A DNA stretch of 64,000 nt from a virus (Duplodnaviria > Heunggongvirae > Uroviricota > Caudoviricetes): the IMG/VR virus record IMGVR_UViG_2718218305_000006. One strand, given 5' to 3'. Below, piece after piece: positions 1 to 61,539 of the stretch (the stretch's first letter is position 1; every line of letters starts with the position of its first letter). Under the pieces are notes generated by a model. That model was not told the DNA's origin. It saw only the letters and a list, made by a program, of their open reading frames with translations, and made no database searches. The translations under genes and the position numbers were made by a program.

Positions 1-1
1 T

Positions 2-1945
2 AGTCAGGGTGAGGCAGATATTTATATTTATGACGAGATTGGTTTCTGGGGAGTTACCGCGAAGCAGTTTGTCAGCGATATGAATGCCCTGGGTGATATC
101 ACCCACATTAATCTCCATATCAATTCACCGGGTGGCGATGTCTTTGAAGGCATCGCCATTTTTAATGCCCTGAAAAATCAGGGGGCGACCATTACCGTGT
201 ATGTGGATGGCGTTGCCGCCTCGATGGCATCTGTGATTGCGATGGCCGGTGATACGGTCATTATGCCGGAAAATGCCTTCATGATGATCCATAAGCCATG
301 GGGATTCAGTGGCGGGGATGCTGAGGATATGCGCAGTTATGCCGATTTGCTGGATAAAGTCGAATCGGTACTGTTGCCAGCCTATGCGCAGAAAACCGGA
401 AAAACCACCGATGAAATTGCCGCCATGCTGGCGGATGAAACCTGGATGTCCGGTGCCGAATGTCTGGCACACGGATTTGCTGACCAGGTGACACCCGCTG
501 TTGAGGCAATGGCATGTATTCAGTCAAAACGTACAGAGGAATTTAAAAAGATGCCGGAATCCATCCGAAACATGATTACTCCGCCACGCAACAGTGCCCC
601 GCGTGATACCACAGTGACAATCCCTGCACCGGCGGTAACAGAACCATCACCGGTACCGGCAGTGTCTGATGAGGCGACCATTCGCGCCCGCGTTATGGCT
701 GAGCAGAAAGCCCGCATGTCAGGCATTAACGATCTGTTTGCCATGTTCGGTGGTCGCTATCAGACGCTTCAGGCACAGTGCGTGGCTGATCCTGACTGTT
801 CGCTGGAAATGGCCCGTGAACGTCTGCTGAATGAAATGGGCAAGGAGTCCTCGCCGACCAACAAAAATACACCGGCTCATATTTATGCCGGAAACGGCAA
901 TTTTGTGGGGGACGGGATCCGCCAGGCGATGCTGGCCCGTGCCGGATTTGAAAATGTCGAGAAGGATAACGCCTATAACGGGATGACCCTGCGTGAATGG
1001 GCTCGCATGTCACTGACGGAGCGCGGTATTGGGGTGGCCAGTTATAACCCCATGCAGATGGTCGGGCTGGCGCTGACGCACAGCACCTCTGATTTTGGCA
1101 ATATTCTGCTGGATGTGTCGAACAAGGGGCTGATCCAGGGCTGGGAGGAATCAGAAGAAACCTTCCAGAAGTGGACCCGTAAGGGACGCCTGTCAGACTT
1201 CAAAACAGCGTATCGCGTGGGGATGGGCGGTTTTGGTTCTCTGCGCCAGGTTCGTGAGGGGGCGGAGTATAAATACATCACCACCTCAGATCGCAAGGAG
1301 ACCATTGCACTGGCCACTTACGGGGAGATTTTCTCCATCACCCGCCAGGCCATTATCAATGATGATCTGAATATGCTGGTGGACGTGCCGATGAAGATGG
1401 GGCGTGCGGCGAAGGCAACGATTGGTGACCTGGTCTACAAGGTGCTGACGGATAACCCGAAACTGTCCGACGGTAAGGCGCTGTTCCATGCCGATCACAA
1501 AAATATTGCCACCGGGGGGATCTCCGTTTCCGGACTGGATGCGGCCCGTCAGATGATGCGCCTGCAGAAAGAAGGCGATCGTGCCCTGAATATCCGTCCG
1601 GCCTTTATGCTGGTACCGGTGGCACTGGAGACGGTGGCGAACCAGACCATCAAATCGGCCAGTGTGAAAGGGGCGGATGCAAACGCCGGTGTCATTAACC
1701 CTATCCAGAACTTTGCTGAGGTGATTGCAGAAGCGCGTCTTGATGCGGCAGACCCGAAAACCTGGTATCTGGCGGCGGCACAGGGCACTGACACCATTGA
1801 AGTGGCCTGGCTGGATGGTGTGGACACGCCATACATTGATCAGCAGGAAGGTTTCACCACTGACGGCATTGCCACAAAAATCCGTATTGATGCCGGAGTG
1901 GCACCACTTGACTGGCGCGGGCTGGTGCGTTCGTCGGTGGCCTGA
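2..1945 (+). CDS. Prohead protease (ClpP/S14-like) - major capsid protein fusion, 5'-partial
   Basis: Reading frame open from window start; N-terminal ClpP-like region (..GVAASMASVIAMAGD..) fused to long capsid-like C-terminal domain; typical HK97-like head gene of EHEC lambdoid prophages. Confidence 0.8.
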   Translation, partial: SQGEADIYIYDEIGFWGVTAKQFVSDMNALGDITHINLHINSPGGDVFEGIAIFNALKNQGATITVYVDGVAASMASVIAMAGDTVIMPENAFMMIHKPWGFSGGDAEDMRSYADLLDKVESVLLPAYAQKTGKTTDEIAAMLADETWMSGAECLAHGFADQVTPAVEAMACIQSKRTEEFKKMPESIRNMITPPRNSAPRDTTVTIPAPAVTEPSPVPAVSDEATIRARVMAEQKARMSGINDLFAMFGGRYQTLQAQCVADPDCSLEMARERLLNEMGKESSPTNKNTPAHIYAGNGNFVGDGIRQAMLARAGFENVEKDNAYNGMTLREWARMSLTERGIGVASYNPMQMVGLALTHSTSDFGNILLDVSNKGLIQGWEESEETFQKWTRKGRLSDFKTAYRVGMGGFGSLRQVREGAEYKYITTSDRKETIALATYGEIFSITRQAIINDDLNMLVDVPMKMGRAAKATIGDLVYKVLTDNPKLSDGKALFHADHKNIATGGISVSGLDAARQMMRLQKEGDRALNIRPAFMLVPVALETVANQTIKSASVKGADANAGVINPIQNFAEVIAEARLDAADPKTWYLAAAQGTDTIEVAWLDGVDTPYIDQQEGFTTDGIATKIRIDAGVAPLDWRGLVRSSVA

Positions 1946-2032
1946 TAACCGCGTTATCACAATCACTGCCCGAAAGGGCTTTTTTTATGCCTGAAAAACA
2001 GCCCCACAGGGGCTGTCCGGAGAAACAGCATT

Positions 2033-2359
2033 ATGGCGAAAAATTTTGTACAGGACGGTACCACCATTGAACTGGTGAATGCCGGAGATCAGACCATCCT
2101 GAGCGGTGCTGCGGTGGTGGTCGGCAGTATGGTGGCCGTGGCCATTACCGATATTCCTGCCGGTGAGGCCGGTGACGGTTTTGCCGAAGGCGTGTTCCTG
2201 CTGCCCAAACAGTCTGCTGACGACATTCAGTCCGGCGCGGTGGTTTATCTGAAGGACGGGGTTGTGCAGCTGGCTGCCGACGGTGCGGTGGCCGCGGGGG
2301 TAGCCTGGGAAAATGCTCCTGCAAACAGCGCCACTGTGGCGGTAAAAATCAATGTCTGA
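2033..2359 (+). CDS. Phage head protein, DUF2190-like (putative capsid decoration/cement protein)
   Basis: 108-aa Gly/Ala/Val-rich ORF immediately after capsid gene; resembles DUF2190 head proteins. Confidence 0.55.
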   Translation: MAKNFVQDGTTIELVNAGDQTILSGAAVVVGSMVAVAITDIPAGEAGDGFAEGVFLLPKQSADDIQSGAVVYLKDGVVQLAADGAVAAGVAWENAPANSATVAVKINV

Positions 2360-2633
2360 TCTGTTTACGCGAATGTGTTGCCGGATGGACGTGGCGACCG
2401 TTCGGATGATGGGCAAACAGGCGGAGATTAACGGCGTCGTGTACGACGTGATGCCGGAGGAAGAGTCCGCGGAGATGGGGGCGCTTTCGGGCAGCCAGTT
2501 GTCACTGGTGGTGTTTTCAGCCCGGTACCGTCCGGCCCGTCATGATGTTGTTGTGTTTGCGGGGCGCACACTGACGGTGACCCGTTATGACACGTACAAC
2601 GGTAAACCCCGGATTTTTGTCGAACAGGAATGA
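2352..2633 (+). CDS. Head-tail joining protein (FII-like)
   Basis: 93-aa ORF between head and tail genes, overlapping neighbours by a few nt; weak motif similarity to lambda FII. Confidence 0.45.
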   Translation: MSDLFTRMCCRMDVATVRMMGKQAEINGVVYDVMPEEESAEMGALSGSQLSLVVFSARYRPARHDVVVFAGRTLTVTRYDTYNGKPRIFVEQE

Positions 2634-3259
2634 GTATGGCAATAAAAGGTCTGGCGCAGGCCATGAAAAATCTGGATGCAATTGATCGCCGTGCCGTTCC
2701 CCGGGCCTCTGCCACGACACTGAACCGCGTGGCGGGGGCCATTATTGCGAAAACGGCCTCTTCAGTTGCCAGGGAGCTGGCCGTTCCCCGTCGTCTTATC
2801 CGTGCCCGCATCCGGTTAAGTCCGGCACGACCGGATAAGGTTTACGCAAAGGTTTACATCAATACCGGCAACCTGCCCGCCATCAAACTGGGGGAGGCCC
2901 GCGTTCGACTTTCCCGCAGAAAACGGAGAAAGAAAGGACAGCGTGCGGCCCTGAAAGGGGGCGGCAGTGTGCTGATTGTGGGGAAAAGACGGATCCCGGA
3001 CGCCTTTATCACCCGGCTGGCTAACGGACGCTGGCATGTGATGCAGCGTATGCCGTGGGCATCATCATCCACCGGCGCGGACAGCAAAGGGAGGCCGAAA
3101 CGCCACCGTCTGCCGATCGAAGTGGTGAAGATTACGACTGCCGGACCGCTGGCAGAAACCTTTGAACGTGAACGGGACCGGATGTACCGGGAAAAATTAC
3201 CGGCGCAGATGATGAAAGCCATGACGCATCAGTTACGCCTGGTGCTGAAAAGAAAATGA
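2630..3259 (+). CDS. Z: Minor tail protein Z (hybrid N-terminus)
   Basis: C-terminal part (..RRKRRKKGQR..GGGSV..NGRWHVMQR..) matches lambda gpZ; start ATG overlaps upstream stop (ATGA); alternative ATG at 2636. Confidence 0.75.
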   Translation: MSMAIKGLAQAMKNLDAIDRRAVPRASATTLNRVAGAIIAKTASSVARELAVPRRLIRARIRLSPARPDKVYAKVYINTGNLPAIKLGEARVRLSRRKRRKKGQRAALKGGGSVLIVGKRRIPDAFITRLANGRWHVMQRMPWASSSTGADSKGRPKRHRLPIEVVKITTAGPLAETFERERDRMYREKLPAQMMKAMTHQLRLVLKRK

Positions 3260-3271
3260 CTGGGAGGGTGT

Positions 3272-3670
3272 ATGAAACACCGTGAAATACGGGCGGCAGT
3301 TCTGTCTGCCCTGAAAGAAAATATTTCTGAGAGGGTGAGCTGGTTTGACGGTCGCCCGGTTTTTATTGATGAACAGGAACTGCCTGCTGTTGCTGTTTAC
3401 CTGACAGATGCGTCTGCTGCTGACGAGTTCGTTGATGAGGGAACCTGGGAGGCGACACTGCATATTGAGGTTTTTCTCAGGGCAAAAGAACCGGACTCGG
3501 CACTGGATATGTGGATGGAAGAAAAAATTCTTCCTGCGCTGGAGGCAGTTCCCGGGCTCAGTGCATTACTGCTGAAGATGAATCTTCAGGGGTATGACTA
3601 CCGCCGGGATGATGAGTTTATGATGTGGGGATCGGCAGATCTCCTGTGGAAAATTACCTACGAGATGTGA
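3272..3670 (+). CDS. U: Minor tail protein U
   Basis: 132 aa, lambda gpU-like (..[26 protein letters not shown]..); divergent (~50%) from the U copy at 47223. Confidence 0.85.
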
Positions 3671-3677
3671 GGACGAT

Positions 3678-4430
3678 ATGGCAACACCAAATCCCCTTGA
3701 GCCGGTAAAAGGTGCCGGTACCACTCTGTGGGTTTACAACGGCAAGGGTGATGCTTATGCAAACCCGTTGTCAGACGATGACTGGCAGCGACTGGCTAAG
3801 GTGAAGGATCTGACGCCGGGCGAGATGACGGCAGAACCCTACGATGATAACTACCTGGATGATGAAGACGCGGACTGGACCGCGACCGGGCAGGGGCAGA
3901 AGTCTGCAGGAGATACCAGTTTTACGCTGGCCTGGAAACCGGGAGAAGAAGGTCAGAAAGGGCTTATAGGCTGGTTTGAAAGCGGGGATGTGCGGGCCTA
4001 TAAAATCCGTTTCCCAAATGGCACGGTGGATGTGTTCCGTGGCTGGGTCAGCAGTATCGGTAAGGCCGTGACGGCGAAAGAAGTGATCACCCGCACGGTG
4101 AAAGTCACTAACGTGGGCAAACCTTCCGTGGCGGAAGAACGCAGCGAAATTACGCCGGCCACTGCAATTAAGGTGACACCGACATCCGGTACGGTGGCAA
4201 AAGGGAAAACAACCACCCTGACGGTTTCTTTTGAGCCGGAAAGTGCAACCGACAAGACGTTCAGAGCGGTTTCCGCCGATCCGTCGAAAGCCACCATTAG
4301 TGTGAAAGATATGACAATTACGGTAAACGGCGTGGCGACAGGTAAGGTGCAGATCCCTGTGGTGAGCGGAAATGGTCAGTTCGCCGCAGTGGCTGAAGTC
4401 ACCGTTACTGAAGCGGGCGCTGCAGGGTAA
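3678..4430 (+). CDS. V: Major tail protein V (with C-terminal Big_2-like domain)
   Basis: 250 aa, strong similarity to lambda gpV (..[35 protein letters not shown]..). Confidence 0.9.
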
Positions 4431-4443
4431 ACGGAGGTAATAC

Positions 4444-4866
4444 ATGTTTCTGAAAACAGAACAATTTGAATATAACGGTGTGTCCGTCACGCTTTCCGAA
4501 TTGTCTGCGCTGCAGCGGTTTGATTATATGAAGTTTGTTTCAGACGCAGCACAACAGAAGACAACGAAGCATAATGCCGTGCACATTAACCAGCGATATC
4601 TGGAAACGGCATCCCTGCTTGTGGCGATGTCGCTATGGCATTCCCATTCCCTCAAAGGCACTCTGGCCTCTCCGGAGACAGAGATGCAGCAGATCCGCCG
4701 TGAAGTGATGCTGGGATGGCCTGCTGATGCACTGAATCAGGCAACGAACCGGGTGCTTTATCTTTCAGGTATGCTGGATAACCGGCACGATGCCGATCCT
4801 GAACCAACCGGGAAAGCAGAAGCGACAGAGCCGGTAACATCAAAAAAGCATTCGAAGGTGAGCTGA
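4444..4866 (+). CDS. G: Tail assembly chaperone G
   Basis: 140 aa starting MFLKTEQFEYNGVSVTLSELSALQR, lambda gpG-like. Confidence 0.85.
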   Translation: MFLKTEQFEYNGVSVTLSELSALQRFDYMKFVSDAAQQKTTKHNAVHINQRYLETASLLVAMSLWHSHSLKGTLASPETEMQQIRREVMLGWPADALNQATNRVLYLSGMLDNRHDADPEPTGKAEATEPVTSKKHSKVS

Positions 4867-5201
4867 ACTTTGTCCTGAAACTGGCGCGTGAGATGGGGAG
4901 AGCCGACTGGCGCGCCATGCTTGCCGGGATGACATCCACCGAATATGCCGACTGGCGACGTTTTTACTGCACGCATTATTTTCAGGATACCCAGCTGGAT
5001 ATGCATTTTTCCGGGCTGACGTACGCCGTACTCAGCCTGTTTTTTTGCGATCCGGATATGCATCCGGCGGATTTCAGCCTGTTCGCTCCGGAGGCAGAGG
5101 AAGGACAGGCGGAGACGCCGGACGAAAATGATGTACTGATGCAGAAGGCGGCGGGCCTCGCCGGTGGAGTCCGTTTCGGGGAGGAGGGAAGGAGGTTGTG
5201 A
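4842..5201 (+). CDS. T: T segment of G-T fusion chaperone, reached by programmed -1 frameshift from G at A_AAA_AAG (4842-4848)
   Basis: -1 frame is open from 4803; in-phase slippery heptamer tcA AAA AAG; shifted frame reads ..KKAFEGELNFVLKLAREMGRADWRAMLAGMTSTEYADWRRFY, lambda gpT-like. Confidence 0.75.
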   Translation, partial: KKAFEGELNFVLKLAREMGRADWRAMLAGMTSTEYADWRRFYCTHYFQDTQLDMHFSGLTYAVLSLFFCDPDMHPADFSLFAPEAEEGQAETPDENDVLMQKAAGLAGGVRFGEEGRRL

Positions 5202-5244
5202 CAGTTATTGATGGTATCAGAGGACATTTCAGGAGGTGACCACG

Positions 5245-7890
5245 ATGGCAGGTAATTTTGCCGATCTGACAGCCGTGCTGACACTGGATTCTGCCCGTTT
5301 TTCTGAAGAGGCAGCGCGGGTAAAAAAAGAGCTGGGTGAAACCAGTGCGCTTGCTGATTTGATGTCCGGGAAAGTCAGTCAGTCTTTCAGAAAACAGGCT
5401 GATGCTGCTGAGCAGAGTCTGAGCCGACAGGCGCTGGCTGCACAAAAAGCCGGGATATCAGTCGGACAGTATAAGGCTGCCATGCGCACACTGCCCGCAC
5501 AGTTCACGGATATTGTCACTCAGCTTGCCGGTGGTCAGAATCCCTTCCTTATCATGCTGCAGCAGGGGGGGCAGATCAGCGATTCATTCGGTGGACCGCT
5601 CAGCCTGCTTACCCTGCTGAAGGAGGAACTTCTCGGGATCAGGGATGCCTCTGAATCATCAGAGGAGTCGCTGTCAGATACGGCAAATGCACTGGCTGAA
5701 AATGCCCGGAATGCCGGTGAGCTGGGACGATTTATGTCGGTGGCCCGTGTGGCGGCAGGTGGCGGGGTTGCCGTACTGGCCGCGCTTGCTGCCGCCGCCT
5801 GGCAGGCAGAGCAGGCTGACCGGGCCTTATTGCGTTCACTGACCCTGACCGGAGGGGCTGCTGCCACCACAACGGCAGAATTGTGGAAAATGGCCGGGGT
5901 GATCAGCGATGAAGCCGGTGGTGGTATCAGACAGGCGGCAGAAAATCTGGCCCGTCTGGCAGAAAGCGGGAAATATACCGCCGGGCAGCTACGGATCATG
6001 GGGGAAACCTCTCAGAGATGGCTGCAGACGGTGGGGGACGATGCCGGGAAGGTGGAAAAAGCCTTTGAAGGGATTGCAGCAGATCCGGTGAAGGCGCTGG
6101 CCTCCCTGAATCAGCAGTATAACTTCCTGAGCGTTTCCCAGTTACGCCATATTGATGAGCTTGAGCGCACGAAAGGTAAACAGGCTGCGGTGACGGAGGC
6201 GATGTCCCTGTTTGCGGATGTCATGAATGCACGTCTGGAGCAACTTGATAAAGCGGCCACGCCGGTGGAAAAAATCTGGGACGATGTTAAAACCTGGACT
6301 TCTGACGCATGGGCATGGATAGGTGATCATACACTGGGGGCACTCAGTCTGATCACTGACGTGGTGGCAGGAACCGTTGAACAGGTGAAGCTGCTGCTTG
6401 TGCAGGGGGATCTGGCGCTGGCTGAATTTATTCAGTCAGCCTGGGAAACGACAAAGAATGTGCCCGGCGTTGGTGCGTTGTTTGGTGAACTGGCAGAAGA
6501 GAACCGCGTATTTATTGAGAAAACAAAACGCGATGAACTGGCGCTGAGAAAATCCATTGCGGAACGGGATGCGCGTATACGCCAGGGGGAAATGGGGTAC
6601 ATCAACCGTTCGCGTGCAACAGGCGTCAGCAAAGGTCCGGGGCAGCAGGAAGCCGTCAGCCGTCTGGCTGAAGAGCTGACAGGTAAAAAGCATACATCAC
6701 CGAAAACGCGCTCTGCCGGGGAGAGGGAAGAGGAGCAGGCAAGAGAGGCTCTGCTTGCCCTTGAAGCTGAGCTCAGGACGCTGGAAAAACACAGCGGTGC
6801 GAATGAGAAAATCAGCCGGCAGCGCCGTGATTTATGGAAGGCGGAAAGTCAGTATGCGGTCCTGAAAGAGGCTGCCACGAAACGACAGTTATCTGAGCAG
6901 GAAAAATCCCTGCTGGCGCATAAAGACGAGACGCTGGAGTACAAACGCCAGCTGGCTGAGCTGGGCGACAAGGTTGAATACCAGAAACGCCTGAATGAGC
7001 TGGCACAGCAGGCGGTGCGGTTTGAAGAGCAGCAGAGCGCGAAGCAGGCCGCCATCAGCGCAAAAGCCCGCGGTCTCACTGACCGTCAGGCGCAGCGGGA
7101 GTCTGAAGCGCAGCGTCTTCGGGACGTGTACGGTGATAATCCGGCTGCGCTGGCGAAGGCCACATCGGCACTGAAGAACACCTGGTCTGCGGAGGAGCAG
7201 CTTCGTGGAAGCTGGCTGGCCGGGCTGAAGTCCGGCTGGGGGGAGTGGGCGGAAAGTGCGACGGACAGTTTTTCGCAGGTTAAAAGTGCTGCCACGCAGA
7301 CCTTTGACGGTATTGCACAGAATATGGCGGCGATGCTGACCGGTGCAGAGGCAGACTGGCGGGGATTCACCCGTTCGGTGCTGTCCATGATGACAGAAAT
7401 CCTGCTTAAACAGGCCATGGTGGGCATTGTCGGGCGTATCGGCAGCGCCATTGGCGGTGCTTTCGGTGGTGGTGCATCTGCTTCCTCGGGGACGGCCATT
7501 GAGGCTGCGGCGGCGAACTTCCATTTCGCGACCGGAGGATTTACGGGGACGGGCGGCAAATATGAGCCTGCGGGGATAGTTCACCGCGGGGAGTTTGTTT
7601 TCACGAAAGAGGCAACCAGCCGGATAGGTGTGGGGAATCTTTACCGTCTGATGCGCGGCTATGCGGAAGGTGGTTATGTGGGTGGTGCCGGAAGTCCGGC
7701 GCAGATGCGGCGGGCGGAAGGTATTAATTTTAATCAGAACAATCACGTGGTGATTCAGAACGACGGCACCAACGGACAGGCGGGGCCGCAGCTGATGAAG
7801 GCGGTGTATGACATGGCCCGCAAGGGGGCGCAGGATGAGCTCCGGCTGCAGTTGCGTGATGGCGGTATGTTATCGGGGAGCGGGCGATGA
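5245..7890 (+). CDS. H: Tail tape measure protein H
   Basis: ATG at 5245 with AGGAGG 8 nt upstream (track start 5236 is a GTG inside the SD); C-terminal two-thirds and last residues (..LRDGGMLSGSGR) match lambda gpH; stop overlaps M start (ATGA). Confidence 0.9.
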   Translation: MAGNFADLTAVLTLDSARFSEEAARVKKELGETSALADLMSGKVSQSFRKQADAAEQSLSRQALAAQKAGISVGQYKAAMRTLPAQFTDIVTQLAGGQNPFLIMLQQGGQISDSFGGPLSLLTLLKEELLGIRDASESSEESLSDTANALAENARNAGELGRFMSVARVAAGGGVAVLAALAAAAWQAEQADRALLRSLTLTGGAAATTTAELWKMAGVISDEAGGGIRQAAENLARLAESGKYTAGQLRIMGETSQRWLQTVGDDAGKVEKAFEGIAADPVKALASLNQQYNFLSVSQLRHIDELERTKGKQAAVTEAMSLFADVMNARLEQLDKAATPVEKIWDDVKTWTSDAWAWIGDHTLGALSLITDVVAGTVEQVKLLLVQGDLALAEFIQSAWETTKNVPGVGALFGELAEENRVFIEKTKRDELALRKSIAERDARIRQGEMGYINRSRATGVSKGPGQQEAVSRLAEELTGKKHTSPKTRSAGEREEEQAREALLALEAELRTLEKHSGANEKISRQRRDLWKAESQYAVLKEAATKRQLSEQEKSLLAHKDETLEYKRQLAELGDKVEYQKRLNELAQQAVRFEEQQSAKQAAISAKARGLTDRQAQRESEAQRLRDVYGDNPAALAKATSALKNTWSAEEQLRGSWLAGLKSGWGEWAESATDSFSQVKSAATQTFDGIAQNMAAMLTGAEADWRGFTRSVLSMMTEILLKQAMVGIVGRIGSAIGGAFGGGASASSGTAIEAAAANFHFATGGFTGTGGKYEPAGIVHRGEFVFTKEATSRIGVGNLYRLMRGYAEGGYVGGAGSPAQMRRAEGINFNQNNHVVIQNDGTNGQAGPQLMKAVYDMARKGAQDELRLQLRDGGMLSGSGR

Positions 7891-8216
7891 AAACATTTCG
7901 CTGGAAAGTGAAGCCGGATATGGAGGTGAACTCGCAGCCGTCGGTGCGTGAAGTGCGTTTTGGTGACGGGTACTCACAGCGTATGGCGGCAGGGCTGAAT
8001 GCTGACCTGAAAACATACCGTGTGACGCTTTCCGTGACCCGGGAGGAGGCCCGGCATCTGGAAGCGTTCCTGGCAGAGCACGGAGGCTGGAAGGCATTTT
8101 TGTGGAAGCCACCCTATGCATACCGGCAGATAAAGGTGACCTGTGCCGGGTGGTCTGCGCGGGTCGGGATGTTGCGCGTTGAGTTCAGCGCGGAGTTTAA
8201 GCAGGTGGTGAACTGA
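7887..8216 (+). CDS. M: Minor tail protein M
   Basis: 109 aa MKTFRWKVKPDMEVNSQPSVREVRFGDGYSQR.. lambda gpM-like. Confidence 0.9.
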   Translation: MKTFRWKVKPDMEVNSQPSVREVRFGDGYSQRMAAGLNADLKTYRVTLSVTREEARHLEAFLAEHGGWKAFLWKPPYAYRQIKVTCAGWSARVGMLRVEFSAEFKQVVN

Positions 8217-8914
8217 TGCAGGATATCCACGAAGAAAGTCTTAACGAGTCGGTAAAATCAGAGCAGTCACCGCGGGTGGTGCTCTGGGAAATTGACCTGA
8301 CGGTGCAGGGCGGTGAGCGCTATTTTTTCTGCAATGAGCTGAATGAAAAAGGGGAGGCGGTCACCTGGCAGGGGCGGCAATATCAGGCATACCCGATTGA
8401 CGGCAGTGGCTTTGAGATGAACGGGAAGGGCAGCAGTGCCAGACCGTCGCTGACGGTGTCCAATCTGTTTGGTCTGGTCACCGGGATGGCGGAGGACCTG
8501 CAGAGCCTGGTGGGGGCCACGGTGGTCCGCCGCCGGGTGTATGCCCGTTTTCTGGATGCGGTGAATTTTGTGGCGGGCAATCCGGAAGCGGACCCGGAGC
8601 AGGAGCTGAGCGACCGCTGGGTGGTGGAGCAGATGTCAGAGCTGACGGCCATGACAGCCTCGTTTGTGCTGGCAACACCGACGGAGACGGACGGGGCGCT
8701 GTTTCCTGGTCGCATCATGCTGGCGAACACCTGTATGTGGGATTACCGGGGAGATGAATGCGGGTATAACGGTCCTGCGGTGGCGGATGAGTTCGACAAC
8801 CCCACCACGGATATCCGTAAGGACAGATGCAGCAAGTGCATGCGCGGGTGTGAGATGCGCGGCATGGTGGCTAATTTTGGCGGTTTCCTTTCCATTAATA
8901 AACTTTCGCAGTAA
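8216..8914 (+). CDS. L: Minor tail protein L
   Basis: 232 aa lambda gpL-like, Cys-rich C-terminus. Confidence 0.9.
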   Translation: MQDIHEESLNESVKSEQSPRVVLWEIDLTVQGGERYFFCNELNEKGEAVTWQGRQYQAYPIDGSGFEMNGKGSSARPSLTVSNLFGLVTGMAEDLQSLVGATVVRRRVYARFLDAVNFVAGNPEADPEQELSDRWVVEQMSELTAMTASFVLATPTETDGALFPGRIMLANTCMWDYRGDECGYNGPAVADEFDNPTTDIRKDRCSKCMRGCEMRGMVANFGGFLSINKLSQ

Positions 8915-8924
8915 ATCCCGGTTT

Positions 8925-9668
8925 ATGACACAGACTGAATCAGCGATTCTGGCGCATGCCCGGCGGTGTGCGCCTGCGGAGTCGTGCGGCTTCGTGGTGA
9001 GAACGCCGGAGGGGGAGCGGTATATCCCTTGTGTGAATATCTCTGCAGAGCCGGAGGCGTATTTTCGTATTGCACCGGAAGACTGGCTGCGGGCAGAGAT
9101 GCAGGGGGAGATTGTGGCACTGGTCCACAGTCATCCCGGTGGTCTGCCCTGGCTGAGCGAGGCCGACCGGCGGCTGCAGATAAAAAGTGCACTGTCCTGG
9201 TGGCTGGTCTGCCGGGGGGACATTCATAAATTCCGCTGTGTGCCACATCTGACAGGACGGCTCTTTGAGCACGGGGTGACGGACTGTTACACGCTGTTCC
9301 GGGATGCATACCATCTGGCGGGGACTGAAATGCCGGATTTTCATCGCGAGGATGACTGGTGGCGCAACGGCCAGAACCTGTACCTGGACAATATGGAGGG
9401 AACGGGCTTTTACCGGGTGCCCCTGTCCTCTGCACAGGCGGGCGATATTCTGCTGTGCTGCTTTGGTGCTTCGGTACCGAACCATGCCGCCATTTACTGT
9501 GGCAACGGTGAGCTGCTTCACCATCTGCCTGAACAACTGAGTAAACGGGAGAGGTATTCCGAAAAATGGCAACGACGAACGCATTCTGTCTGGCGTCACC
9601 GCCACTGGCACGCATCTGCCTTCACGGGGATTTACAACGATTTGGCCGCCGCCTCAGCCTGTATGTGA
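8925..9668 (+). CDS. K: Tail assembly protein K (MPN/NlpC-P60-like)
   Basis: ATG at 8925 (MTQTESAILAHARRC..) equals the 247-aa copy at 52876; track ORF 8664 is an upstream in-frame extension. Confidence 0.85.
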   Translation: MTQTESAILAHARRCAPAESCGFVVRTPEGERYIPCVNISAEPEAYFRIAPEDWLRAEMQGEIVALVHSHPGGLPWLSEADRRLQIKSALSWWLVCRGDIHKFRCVPHLTGRLFEHGVTDCYTLFRDAYHLAGTEMPDFHREDDWWRNGQNLYLDNMEGTGFYRVPLSSAQAGDILLCCFGASVPNHAAIYCGNGELLHHLPEQLSKRERYSEKWQRRTHSVWRHRHWHASAFTGIYNDLAAASACM

Positions 9669-26699: not shown

Positions 26700-26909
26700 A
26701 AACGGTTTGCGGGAAAAGGATAGTTAAGTAGAATTGCTGCGGGTGCTTGAGGCTATCTGCCTCGGGCATGAACACCAACGGCAGATAGAGAAAAGCCCCA
26801 GTTAACATTACGCGTCCTGCAAGACGCTTAACATTAATCTGAGGCTCAATCCATGCTGAACACATGTAGGTTAGCCTCTTACGTGCCGAAAGGCAAGGAG
26901 AAGCAGGCT

Positions 26910-27065
26910 ATGAAGCAGCAAAAGGCGATGTTAATCGCCCTGATCGTCATCTGTTTAACCGTCATAGTGACGGCACTGGTAACGAGGAAAGACCTCTGCG
27001 AGGTGCGAATCCGAACCGGTCAGACGGAGGTCGCTGTCTTCGTAGACTACGAATCTGAGAAGTAA
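26910..27065 (+). CDS. hokD: Hok/Gef-family type I toxin (HokD/RelF-like)
   Basis: 51 aa MKQQKAMLIALIVICLTVIVTALVTRKDLCEVRIRTGQTEVAVFVDYESEK; near-identical over most of its length to recalled HokD; track ORF 26853 is an in-frame upstream extension. Confidence 0.8.
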   Translation: MKQQKAMLIALIVICLTVIVTALVTRKDLCEVRIRTGQTEVAVFVDYESEK

Positions 27066-36817: not shown

Positions 36818-36959
36818 TGGGGTGGCTAATGATATCAGATAAACTCATAACGCTGGTGAAGAGCCTCTGTGTACTTGTCGGCATTTCATTTTCACTAATG
36901 CTGGTTGCTCTTTTTCTTTCCATGGCCTGGATGGCGTTGACTTCGGCAGGGCTGGTGGG

Positions 36960-37433
36960 GTGAGCATAAACCGAATGCTTTCCGCGTTTACCGTTATTCT
37001 GCTGGTGGTCTGTGGTGCGCTTAGTCTGGGGCTGAATCATTACCGCGATAACGCCATAACCTACAAAGAGCAGCGCGATAAAAAAGTCAGTGAGCTGGAG
37101 CTGGCAAATGCAACCATTACTGATATGCAGCAGCGCCAGCGTGATGTTGCTGCACTTGATGCCAGATACTCGAGGGAATTAGCTGATGCGAGAGCTGAAA
37201 ATGAAACTCTGCGTGCTGATGTTGCCGCTGGTCGTAAGCGCCTGCGCATCAACGCCAACTGTCCAGGCTCCTTGCGTAAAGCCCCCATCACCTCCGGCGT
37301 GGATAATGCAACCGGTCCCCGACTGGCAGAAGCCGCTGAACGGGATTATTTCATCCTCAGAGAACGGCTGATGGCAATGCAGAAGCAACTGGAAGGAGCA
37401 CAGGAATATATCCGTACCCAGTGTATACCGTGA
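36960..37433 (+). CDS. Rz: Spanin inner-membrane subunit Rz
   Basis: 157 aa lambda Rz-like (..NHYRDNAITYK.., ..ERDYFILRERLMAMQKQLEG..); GTG start. Confidence 0.85.
   Translation: MSINRMLSAFTVILLVVCGALSLGLNHYRDNAITYKEQRDKKVSELELANATITDMQQRQRDVAALDARYSRELADARAENETLRADVAAGRKRLRINANCPGSLRKAPITSGVDNATGPRLAEAAERDYFILRERLMAMQKQLEGAQEYIRTQCIP
37186..37371 (+). CDS. Rz1: Spanin outer-membrane lipoprotein Rz1 (embedded in Rz, +1 frame)
   Basis: Lipobox ..LVVSAC.., Pro-rich ..VKPPSPPAWIMQPVPDWQKPLNGIISSSENG, lambda Rz1-like. Confidence 0.8.
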   Translation: MRELKMKLCVLMLPLVVSACASTPTVQAPCVKPPSPPAWIMQPVPDWQKPLNGIISSSENG

Positions 37434-37896
37434 TGTTTTGTTACGAAGGTGTTACCGGTAACGTTAAGGTAATTTAACAAAGAGTCAGTTCCGGACTTTA
37501 TAGTGTGCTCAGTTCATGGCCAAAAACGATTTCTGTGATAAATATTTTGAATATTATTTACAGGTAAATGGAGTGGGGCACATGGATAGAAATATTACAA
37601 TAGAGTATGAAGTATATGCCCGTATTGTATGGGCAGAGAAGGCAAAAACATGGTAATTCCGTGTGTTGCCATGATACCTGACTGGCAGAATTGTTGTTTG
37701 GTTTTGAGTATATAGTCAGCGTCTTTTGTTCGGTAATTGCTCTTTCAATTAAAATGCCAGATATGATTTGCTTTTCTTTGTTGTTTAGTTTTTTTGTATA
37801 TTATTTTTATTGTTTTTATATAATTAGTTTTTTATTGTTGTCTTATTAAGGACGGTAAATTCAGGATGGCAGTCTGTAGATAAACGGAGGTTACTT

Positions 37897-38211
37897 ATGC
37901 TACATGATCACCTGGCAGAATGTCTGGAGAAAAAAGGACTGTACCGGAGAGCAGCTGAACGATGGGCAAAAGTGATGGTACAGCTAAGTGATGACCAGAA
38001 AAGAAAAGTGGCGGCACAGAAACGAGCAGAGTGTTTGCGTAAGGCGCGCCGGACTCCGGTTTCACCGGTGAACCTGACCGAAATAAAACAAGCGGTCAAC
38101 AGACTACATTCTGAGTTGGGAATGGGATTTGAAGAGCGGCGGGTATTCCGACGATATAAAGGGACAGGAGAACAGAATACGTCCGGAAACGCGCGGTCAA
38201 AAAAATGCTAA
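37897..38211 (+). CDS. PerC-family-like transcriptional regulator (Pch-like), tentative
   Basis: 104 aa, basic, ..GLYRRAAERWAKVM..; GGAGG SD; preceded by about 450 bp of very AT-rich DNA. Confidence 0.4.
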   Translation: MLHDHLAECLEKKGLYRRAAERWAKVMVQLSDDQKRKVAAQKRAECLRKARRTPVSPVNLTEIKQAVNRLHSELGMGFEERRVFRRYKGTGEQNTSGNARSKKC

Positions 38212-38292
38212 AAAATATCTGAGAGCGTTATTGCCTGTTACCATAAGAAAAAGCGACTTTAGTGGTCGCTTTTTGTGTCATATATAAGTCGT

Positions 38293-38517
38293 TTAAGTAA
38301 ACCTGTCTGAACAGGTTCTCTGGTCGTGTTTGTCTTTGTTGGGTACAAATTGAGAATATTTTTCATTAATTAATCTTCTTCTGCAGGCTTCAATAACCCA
38401 CGCTGAAAAATTTCCTGAACCTTTCAGATCAAGAGCGATGTTAATTTGTTCAATCATCTGGTTTGGAAATCGGATGTTGCGGGTTGTTGTTCTGCGGGTT
38501 CTGTTCTTTGATGACAT
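38293..38517 (-). CDS. Small putative DNA-binding protein (YnfO/YlcI-like position upstream of terminase)
   Basis: 74 aa basic N-terminus; only minus-strand gene in the late region. Confidence 0.35.
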   Translation of the reverse strand: MSSKNRTRRTTTRNIRFPNQMIEQINIALDLKGSGNFSAWVIEACRRRLINEKYSQFVPNKDKHDQRTCSDRFT

Positions 38518-38716
38518 AATGTTGCCCCATATTCAGTGTTGCTGATTTGTATTATCTGAAGTTGCTTTTACGTTAATTTGATGCAGATCAATTAATACGA
38601 TACCTGCGTCATAATTGATTATTTGACGTGGTTTGATGGCGTAGATGCACGTTGTGACATGTAGATGATAATTATTATCATTTTGCGGGTCCTTTCCGGC
38701 GATCCGACCGGTTACG

Positions 38717-38728
38717 GGGCGGCGACCT
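38717..38728 (+). other. cos: cosN cohesive-end sequence (GGGCGGCGACCT) with lambda-like cosB downstream
   Basis: Exact lambda 12-nt cohesive end followed by CGCGGGTTTTCGCTATTTATGAAAATTTTCCGG, about 175 bp upstream of nu1. Confidence 0.8.
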
Positions 38729-38903
38729 CGCGGGTTTTCGCTATTTATGAAAATTTTCCGGGGAAAATCATGTCGGTACTTCTCGAACATAACTATTTGT
38801 TTTTTCTAATATCGAATCCGTAAAGGTCCGACATGAAAACGCCTGAAAAAGTCATTTTCGGGCACTTTCATGTCGGACCCTGTATTTGTTGTGAGACTGT
38901 TTC

Positions 38904-39423
38904 ATGAAGGTTAATAAAAAGAAACTTGCCGAAATTTTCAACGTGGATCCGCGAACGATTGAACGCTGGCAGTCTCAGGGGCTCCCTTGCGTCTCCGGAG
39001 GTGGTAAGGGCGTTGAATCTGTATTTGATACCGCCACGGCAATTCAGTGGTATGCGCAGAGGGAAGCTGATATCGAAAATGAAAAACTCCGTAAAGAGGT
39101 TGAGGATTACAGGGCTGCCAGCGAGGCAGATCTCCAGCCTGGGACTATTGAGTACGAACGCCATCGACTTACGCGTGCGCAGGCTGACGCCCAGGAGCTG
39201 AAGAATGCCAGAGACTCCGCAGAAGTGGTGGAAACCGCATTCTGTACTTTCGTGCTGTCACGGATCGCAGGTGAAATTGCCAGTATTCTTGACGGGATCC
39301 CTCTCTCAGTACAGCGGCGTTTTCCGGAACTGGAAAACCGACATGTTGATTTCCTGAAACGGGATATTATCAAAGCCATGAACAAAGCAGCCGCGCTGGA
39401 TGAACTGATACCGGGGTTGCTGA

Positions 39424-39449
<26 letters not shown>
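38904..39449 (+). CDS. nu1: Terminase small subunit Nu1
   Basis: 181 aa; near-identical to lambda Nu1 over C-terminal 120 aa. Confidence 0.9.
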
Positions 39450-43130
<3,681 letters not shown>

Positions 43131-60828: not shown

Positions 60829-61458
60829 ATGCCTGTTACCACCTTAAGTATCCCAAGTATATCTCAATTATCTCCTGCAAGAGTACAGTCTTTGCAGGAT
60901 GCAGCCAGACTTGAAAGTGGAATAAGAATATCCATTGGTAGTGGCCAATATTCTGTTCACTATGTCCAACTACTGGATGGATTTTCAGTTGAACCGGTGA
61001 GAGGAGGCTTACTGGATAGGCTATTGGGGCGTGAGCATCGAATGGATAGAAGGGCTGTGGCTCTGGAAAGGCAATTAAATGGAGGTGTCGATTTTTTAAG
61101 TAGTGTTAATAACTATTTTCAGAGTGTCATGGCAGAACACAGAGAAAATAAAACAGGTAATAAAATATTAATGGAAAAAATAAATTCTTGTGTATTTGGA
61201 ACGGATTCTAATCACTTTTCTTGCCCGGAGTCATTTTTGACATGCCCGATAACGCTGGACACACCTGAGACTGGAGTGTTCATGAGAAACTCACGAGGTG
61301 CTGAGATATGCTCTCTATATGATAAGGATGCGTTAGTGCAACTTGTTGAAACTGGTGGAACTCATCCTCTGAGTCGAGAACCTATAACAGAATCAATGAT
61401 TATGAGAAAAGACGAATGTCACTTTGATGCAAAAAGAGAAGCTTTTTGTTGTAAGTGA
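60829..61458 (+). CDS. nleG: NleG-family type III secretion effector
   Basis: 209 aa; C-terminal ..CPITLDTPETGVFMRNSRGAEICSLYDKDALVQLVETGGTHPLSREPITESMI.. NleG signature. Confidence 0.8.
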   Translation: MPVTTLSIPSISQLSPARVQSLQDAARLESGIRISIGSGQYSVHYVQLLDGFSVEPVRGGLLDRLLGREHRMDRRAVALERQLNGGVDFLSSVNNYFQSVMAEHRENKTGNKILMEKINSCVFGTDSNHFSCPESFLTCPITLDTPETGVFMRNSRGAEICSLYDKDALVQLVETGGTHPLSREPITESMIMRKDECHFDAKREAFCCK

Positions 61459-61539
61459 TAATTAATGCTATAAATATAGTTTTGTGTATTTTTATTTTTT
61501 ACTAAAGCAAAATTAAATTATTAAAATGGAGGGAGAGGA

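Follow-up and report, generated by a model that had tools for sequence, protein, structure and literature searches.

The window (the whole stretch of 64,000 nucleotides analysed here) contains on its + strand a coding sequence identical to ECs_2182, the pchB gene of prophage Sp11 of Escherichia coli O157:H7 Sakai. Three such genes are annotated in Sakai: pchA (Sp4), pchB (Sp11) and pchC (Sp14). Their coding sequences differ at positions 16, 172 and 183 alone, the same positions that were reported as diagnostic SNPs among pchA/B/C (Uhlich et al., 2018; PMC5931665). The window has the pchB combination (C/G/C), the other two being G/G/C for pchA and C/A/A for pchC. The gene is pchB and forms, together with the near-identical pchA and pchC, the set of three group-1 PerC homologues of enterohaemorrhagic E. 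coli (EHEC). The locus is real but already known, since the gene, its family, its location in a prophage and several of its regulatory layers have been published since 2004. The coordinates of the gene and of the features around it are collected in Table 1.

A PerC-like regulator, basic, of 104 aa and preceded by a strong SD, had been proposed at this place from the sequence alone (hereafter, the original prediction), and each of these attributes is borne out. The product has a pI of 10.33 and 25 K+R residues vs. 12 D+E residues, as computed from the translation, and the GGAGG lies 6 nt 5′ of the ATG. Similarity to the PerC/Pch family, the check on which the proposal hung, is clear-cut: the PF06069 PerC profile matches the ORF with E=5.4e-44 and 148.8 bits (cut-off 22.6), residues 1-89 of the protein aligning with profile positions 1-89 of 90, so that the match is essentially full-length. 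PerC of EPEC E2348/69 shares 47.1% identity with the pchB protein (E=1e-17; tblastn, NC_011603.1 pMAR2, 18493-18747). Purifying selection acts on the pch coding sequence (pN/pS ~0.22 vs. the most diverged allele). Sequence searches of the PDB gave no relatives of the protein, and a single-sequence AlphaFold2 model was all-helical with a mean pLDDT of 50.5, too poor for a fold search.

The likeness to EPEC PerC, which is encoded on the EAF plasmid pMAR2, extends over residues 2-88 and includes the Pfam family and, according to the literature, activation of the LEE1/ler promoter by both proteins. On the other hand, PerC is shorter, the match stopping at residue 88, and it is plasmid-borne as the third gene of perABC, without a leader of its own, whereas pch is prophage-borne and monocistronic.

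Table 1. Coordinates of the pchB locus and of related features in the window (SD, Shine-Dalgarno sequence).
Feature	Position	Strand	Description
dicF sRNA gene copy	19480..19531	-	Early region of the pchB prophage; Rfam RF00039, 75 bits vs. gathering score 48, E=1e-14
Rz (i-spanin), 157-aa ORF	36960..37433	+	Pfam Phage_lysis, E=1.3e-46; last gene of the lysis cassette, left cassette boundary
Rz1, embedded in Rz	37186-37371		Part of the Rz locus
Conserved 5′ part of the leader	37434..37742	+	GC ~0.38; 2.6-5.8% divergence among six alleles
T-rich hypervariable promoter-proximal core, pchB-type allele	37743..37850	+	31-42% divergent from pchA, pchC and other alleles
Proximal 5′ UTR with SD GGAGG (37886-37890)	37851..37896	+	6.5-26% divergence; GGAGG invariant in six alleles
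pchB CDS	37897..38211	+	104-aa PerC-family transcriptional activator of ler/LEE1
Candidate anti-SD	37984-37996	+	Predicted from the full-length fold
DicF-seed complement ACCAGAAA, 8 nt	37994-38001	+	Duplex prediction; overlaps the candidate anti-SD
Putative bidirectional intrinsic terminator	38248..38274	.	AAAAAGCGAC-TTTAGTG-GTCGCTTTTT
YlcI/YnfO-family (DUF3950) 74-aa gene	38293..38517	-	Pfam DUF3950, E=1.7e-18; NCBIfam NF041551
cosN GGGCGGCGACCT	38717..38728	+	Read from the sequence
Nu1	from 38904		Pfam, E=4e-91; large terminase gene next

The prophage and its Rz-cos cargo slot

The prophage that carries pchB here is lambdoid, of the Sp11 type, and its host is an O157:H7 strain. Positions 21212-59455 of the window are 99.3% identical to Sakai Sp11, and in the pch region 2 mismatches were found in 1601 bp. 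Both prophages share the flanking genes (antirepressor, Rz/Rz1, YlcI/YnfO, Nu1 and terminase) and the pchB-type T-rich leader. The differences from Sakai amount to two leader SNPs (C at 37456 and C at 37682 in the window) and nothing else substantial in this region, and to the host, which is another O157:H7 strain whose best matches are bovine isolates (e.g., Z885, 99.7%).

The distribution of the locus was surveyed with its 861-bp pch region. Sequences 99.9% identical to it, annotated as “PerC family transcriptional regulator”, occur in 672 of the 5426 complete genomes of E. coli, typically in three copies each (median); the genomes bearing them belong to O157:H7, O121 and O145, and also to O103, O111 and O55:H7. 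Leader and gene are always found together (1875 vs. 1878 places, the 672 genomes being the same). Of 50,697 phage records, just two carry pch, both of them short fragments from an O157:H7 strain.

At a larger scale, two lambdoid prophages in tandem meet within the window (positions 1-16000 and 17595-18839, - strand). Its upstream 16 kb correspond to the tail region of the neighbouring lambda-like prophage, whose tail genes are 96.6% identical to those of Sp11 over 10 kb, a large direct repeat on which recombination is likely to act; on the right, the window reaches into ydfJ. Other features of the window include a sok antisense RNA (26741-26915, + strand; RF01794, 113 bits), which marks a hok/sok-type toxin-antitoxin module (a MokC/HokC gene is annotated in the corresponding region of Sakai), and two prophage tRNA genes at 31209-31284 and 31385-31461 (+ strand), called by ARAGORN as Met (CAT) and Arg (TCT), the CAT gene being annotated in Sakai as ileZ (tRNA-Ile).

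The original prediction placed the gene between Rz and cos, at a recognised moron site, and the order of Rz, cosN and Nu1 (Table 1) bears out this position. The Rz locus is annotated in Sakai as an endopeptidase plus a lipoprotein precursor. In pch-less lambdoid phages (a Stx2c phage, a Stx1 phage and Lambda_4B5), BLAST homology to the window ends at ~37411-37425 and returns at ~38370-38383, within the DUF3950 gene, which sets the right edge of the cassette. This break, from ~37425 to ~38370-38383, therefore identifies the pch unit as a replaceable cassette of ~950 bp. The same slot holds bor or other cargo in pch-less phages (bor and small ORFs in Lambda_4B5), in agreement with the moron-site reading; the gene is absent from this slot in close relatives and is followed by a terminator of its own. 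The latter is a hairpin formed by a perfect 10-nt inverted repeat with A5/T5 arms (-14.7 kcal/mol), with the same sequence in pchA, pchB and pchC, and it is predicted to terminate pch and, from the opposite side, the convergent DUF3950 gene. Judged from its sequence, the pch unit is a self-contained cargo cassette (leader, gene and terminator) in the lambda bor slot. It resembles lambda bor and other Rz-cos morons in the slot itself, in its foreign composition, in having its own terminator and in its absence from sister phages. It differs from bor in that the latter is on the opposite strand and codes for a lipoprotein, whereas pch codes for a regulator and is co-oriented with the late operon.

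Farther downstream, GGGCGGCGACCT is what we take to be the lambda cohesive-end sequence. Between cosN and the start of Nu1 there is an inverted repeat of 25 nt (38825-38879), 88% complementary with a 5-nt spacer, which was the source of spurious microRNA matches in Rfam. Its position is presumably that of the inverted R2/R1 terminase-binding sites in lambda cosB, the sequence here being different.

Composition and allelic structure of the leader

From the Rz stop codon (37433) to the pchB ATG, the leader comprises 463 bp of non-coding DNA with a GC content of 0.335 vs. 0.528 for the window. A stretch of about 450 bp that is very AT-rich, with phased A/T tracts, had been described here as the signature of an H-NS-silenced, horizontally acquired regulator locus. 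The AT-richness holds for the leader as a whole, but its extreme part covers only ~110-160 bp, the first 300 bp having a GC content of ~0.38. In the 108-bp core GC falls to 0.176, the lowest value in the 64 kb, with 60% T on the coding strand; only 0.003-0.005% of the 110/160-bp segments in the 64 kb are equally AT-rich, and the AT content of both leader and core is well above background. The sole comparably AT-rich stretch is an intergenic region at 61367-61542, between nleG effector genes in the right-hand end of the prophage. The proposed phasing, in turn, did not hold up: the Fourier power of AA/TT and of A4/T4 at 10-11.5 bp was not above that of 1000 shuffles (p=0.34-0.94), nor was any other periodicity of the leader A/T tracts significant in the same comparison. 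T-tract centres are spaced by ~14, 9 and 15.5 bp; the tracts are abundant, without helical register.

Six alleles were aligned: that of the window (pchB), those of pchA and pchC, and three others, taken from a plasmid copy and from isolates of monkey and human origin. The core is 31-42% divergent vs. 3-6% for its flanks and <1% for the pchA/pchB/pchC coding regions; therefore, the divergence of pchB from pchA and pchC is almost all placed in one promoter-proximal block. Within this block, the indels among alleles are not multiples of 3. From the alignment, the T-rich core looks like a swapped, allele-specific promoter-proximal block, and it would constitute a module giving pchB inputs unlike those of pchA, which fits the differential regulation by LrhA reported for these genes. 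The part upstream of the core probably serves in regulation, belongs to a long 5′ UTR, or both.

Several sequence elements were also noted within the leader. The core contains three imperfect 18-nt direct repeats with spacings of 22 and 25 bp. At 37533-37563 there is a 31-bp AT-rich palindrome (CTGTGATAAATATT-TTG-AATATTATTTACAG), invariant in the six pch alleles, which could possibly be a regulator-binding site; its assignment as a LexA box was ruled out, since the spacing is wrong. A perfect palindrome of 12 bp, GTTACCGGTAAC, is located at 37453-37464, 20 nt past the Rz stop codon. It is the C at 37456 that completes it, all other alleles examined having GTTACTGGTAAC or GTTATTGGTAAC.

The composition of the leader raises the question of H-NS. 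It is conceivable that the AT-rich leader is chiefly a nucleation and silencing site for H-NS on curved DNA, keeping pchB off until counter-silenced. [quoted passage not shown] Against it, the A/T tracts lack the helical phasing that had been put forward as its signature, and pch-specific H-NS data were not found in the accessible literature; the supplements of Fukui (2016; PMC4764244) hold no per-gene H-NS table. Moreover, the T-rich core is hypervariable between alleles, so any effect of H-NS would rest on composition and not on a conserved site. From AT-richness alone, it is reasonable to infer that H-NS may silence the pchB leader. As the chief role of the leader, we regard this as a serious possibility leaning slightly to the unlikely side; it is compatible with the explanation preferred here, in which a conserved upstream part is joined to an allele-specific core, and does not exclude it.

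The conservation of the upstream part admits a second reading, namely, that the near-invariant 37434-37742 may be an undescribed functional element (it could encode a small protein, act as a long 5′ UTR that is structured or binds Hfq, or be a common operator platform) and the core a swappable promoter module providing each pch paralogue with inputs of its own. This part accompanies pch in all of its ~1,875 copies (672 E. coli genomes), and within it the 46-codon ORF discussed below and the 31-bp palindrome are kept intact. A search of 34000-40000 for Rfam families returned chance matches only, and the leader had no match at gathering scores. We consider such an element rather unlikely, and keep the two-part leader described above as the working description.

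Transcription and translation of pchB

A scan of the leader for the sigma-70 consensus detected no promoter. A perfect TATAAT is present at 37819-37824, in the pchB-type core only, with no recognisable -35 element. Upstream, the segment 32231-32446 (+ strand) holds an STnc100-family RNA (105 bits) with a strong terminator directly after it (32428-32446); it probably corresponds to the short late leader transcript (pR′-tR′) that follows the Q gene. From this point to pch every gene is on the + strand, and the same strand is free of terminator-like sites from 36278 to pch; therefore, Q-antiterminated late transcripts should reach pch. Group-1 pch transcripts are indeed increased after SOS induction; when the copies were told apart by their SNPs in RNA-seq of strain PA20, the significantly induced one was pchC and not pchB (PMC5931665).

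Taken to its extreme, this would mean that pchB has no consequential promoter of its own and is mainly expressed as the tail of the pR′-Q late transcript, coupled to induction, in place of being a moron expressed in the lysogen. The uninterrupted run of + strand genes from the STnc100/tR′ region, the lack of terminator-like sites between Rz and pch, the lack of a consensus promoter in the leader and the late rise of group-1 pch transcripts after SOS all suit this reading. It is opposed by the requirement of pch genes for LEE expression in uninduced, DMEM-grown lysogens, and by the response of pch to LrhA, Lrp/butyrate, RpoS/NtrC and Fur, which implies regulated promoters of their own; furthermore, a synthesised native PpchA fragment has served as a butyrate-responsive biosensor part (PMC7279287). 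We thus consider it distinctly unlikely that read-through is the main source of the transcript. In the preferred explanation it would be an additional input: on prophage induction, Q-antiterminated late transcripts would read into pchB.

Regarding translation, a copy of the dicF sRNA gene is located in the early region of the pchB prophage (Table 1). It differs by one base (GUGGCUG for GUGACUG) from what we take to be the K-12 DicF. In pchA, DicF has been described to pair at an anti-SD inside the coding sequence, freeing the RBS under low oxygen (Melson and Kendall, 2019, as recounted in PMC7873438, PMC7769764, PMC9438474 and PMC13138055). In the predicted fold of the full-length sequence, the SD/AUG of pchB (37886-37899) pairs with the candidate anti-SD with p ~0.75, shorter fragments folding differently. 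ACCAGAAA is complementary to the 5′ end of DicF, UUUCUGGU, the chance expectation for a given 8-mer in 315 nt being ~0.005. The three paralogues pchA, pchB and pchC have the same sequence in the coding segment that contains the SD partner and the DicF complement. On the other side, the SD-masking fold does not exceed shuffled sequences in stability (z=-0.08), and when the proposed DicF site is blocked in the model, the accessibility of the SD goes up only modestly, from 0.42 to 0.52.

The likeness to the published control of pchA by DicF (Melson and Kendall, 2019) thus consists of the shared predicted SD partner and seed complement, and of the dicF copy in the window; the difference is that the mechanism was published for pchA only, the pairing site in pchB being the one we infer, at its exact position, from the folding and duplex models. 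Altogether, the in silico results are suggestive of DicF gating, agreeing with the published pchA mechanism without proving it. As published for pchA, the SD would probably be masked by the coding segment of pchB and freed by DicF under low oxygen.

Small ORFs in the leader add little to this picture. ORF52 (37691-37849), within the T-rich core, was discarded as a composition artefact, the indels between alleles not preserving its frame. As for ORF46 (37516-37656), the proposal that its 46-aa protein is truly encoded in the conserved leader, which would turn the cassette into a two-gene moron, is highly unlikely: none of the six alleles interrupts the ORF, its region is better conserved than are synonymous positions of pch (A25 allele), and a full-length match to phrog_2157 was obtained (E=1e-37), but the ATG of the ORF has no preceding SD, its substitutions are mostly non-synonymous (pN/pS ~0.8 vs. 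0.22 for pch), it has no Pfam or NCBIfam match, it is unannotated in RefSeq and Sakai and absent from the Sakai RIBOseq small-gene lists, and its tblastn match is confined to an EDL933-derived fragment, so that phrog_2157 probably represents repeated gene calls on near-identical prophages, which would make that match circular. ORF46 is accordingly unsupported as a gene.

pchB in the regulation of the LEE

The pchABC genes correspond in EHEC to PerC of EPEC, and neither the expression of the attaching-and-effacing (LEE) virulence genes nor adherence reaches its full level without them (Iyoda and Watanabe, 2004, in the summary given by PMC4456613; PMC6265319); pch has been described as essential for LEE expression in EHEC (PMC4764244). 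Among five Pch proteins, PchB was the strongest activator of ler::lacZ (12,513 vs. 1,577 Miller units, ~8-fold; PMC5931665). Pch activates LEE1 only under repression by H-NS, StpA and Hha, and lowers the occupancy of H-NS there (Fukui, 2016; PMC4764244). Several inputs to the pch genes have also been described. LrhA acts directly on pchA and pchB, with differential regulation (Honda, 2009, in the summary given by PMC4456613), and Lrp/butyrate, acting on pchA, and LeuO are further reported inputs (PMC4456613; PMC7279287). NtrC-RpoS and Fur have been reported as inputs to pchA as well, the effect of Fur being indirect.

A single scheme can be drawn from these data and from the features of the locus. 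The leader would join the conserved upstream part of 300 bp to the ~110-bp T-rich core, which differs sharply between pch paralogues, and translation and late read-through would be governed as set out above. The protein would, as has been shown in the literature for an identical one, bind the regulatory region of LEE1, as well as other targets covered by H-NS, and relieve the silencing by H-NS and StpA, leading to expression of ler and, through it, of the whole LEE type III secretion system. The explanation taken as a whole (pchB identity, cassette, two-part leader, DicF gating and late read-through) is one in which we have very high confidence.

The present analysis makes modest, descriptive additions to what had been published on this locus: the divergence between paralogues is concentrated in a T-rich block of ~110 bp, and pchB and dicF are found together in one prophage. 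PchA, PchB and PchC are master switches of LEE type III secretion in EHEC, and the locus is thus medically relevant.
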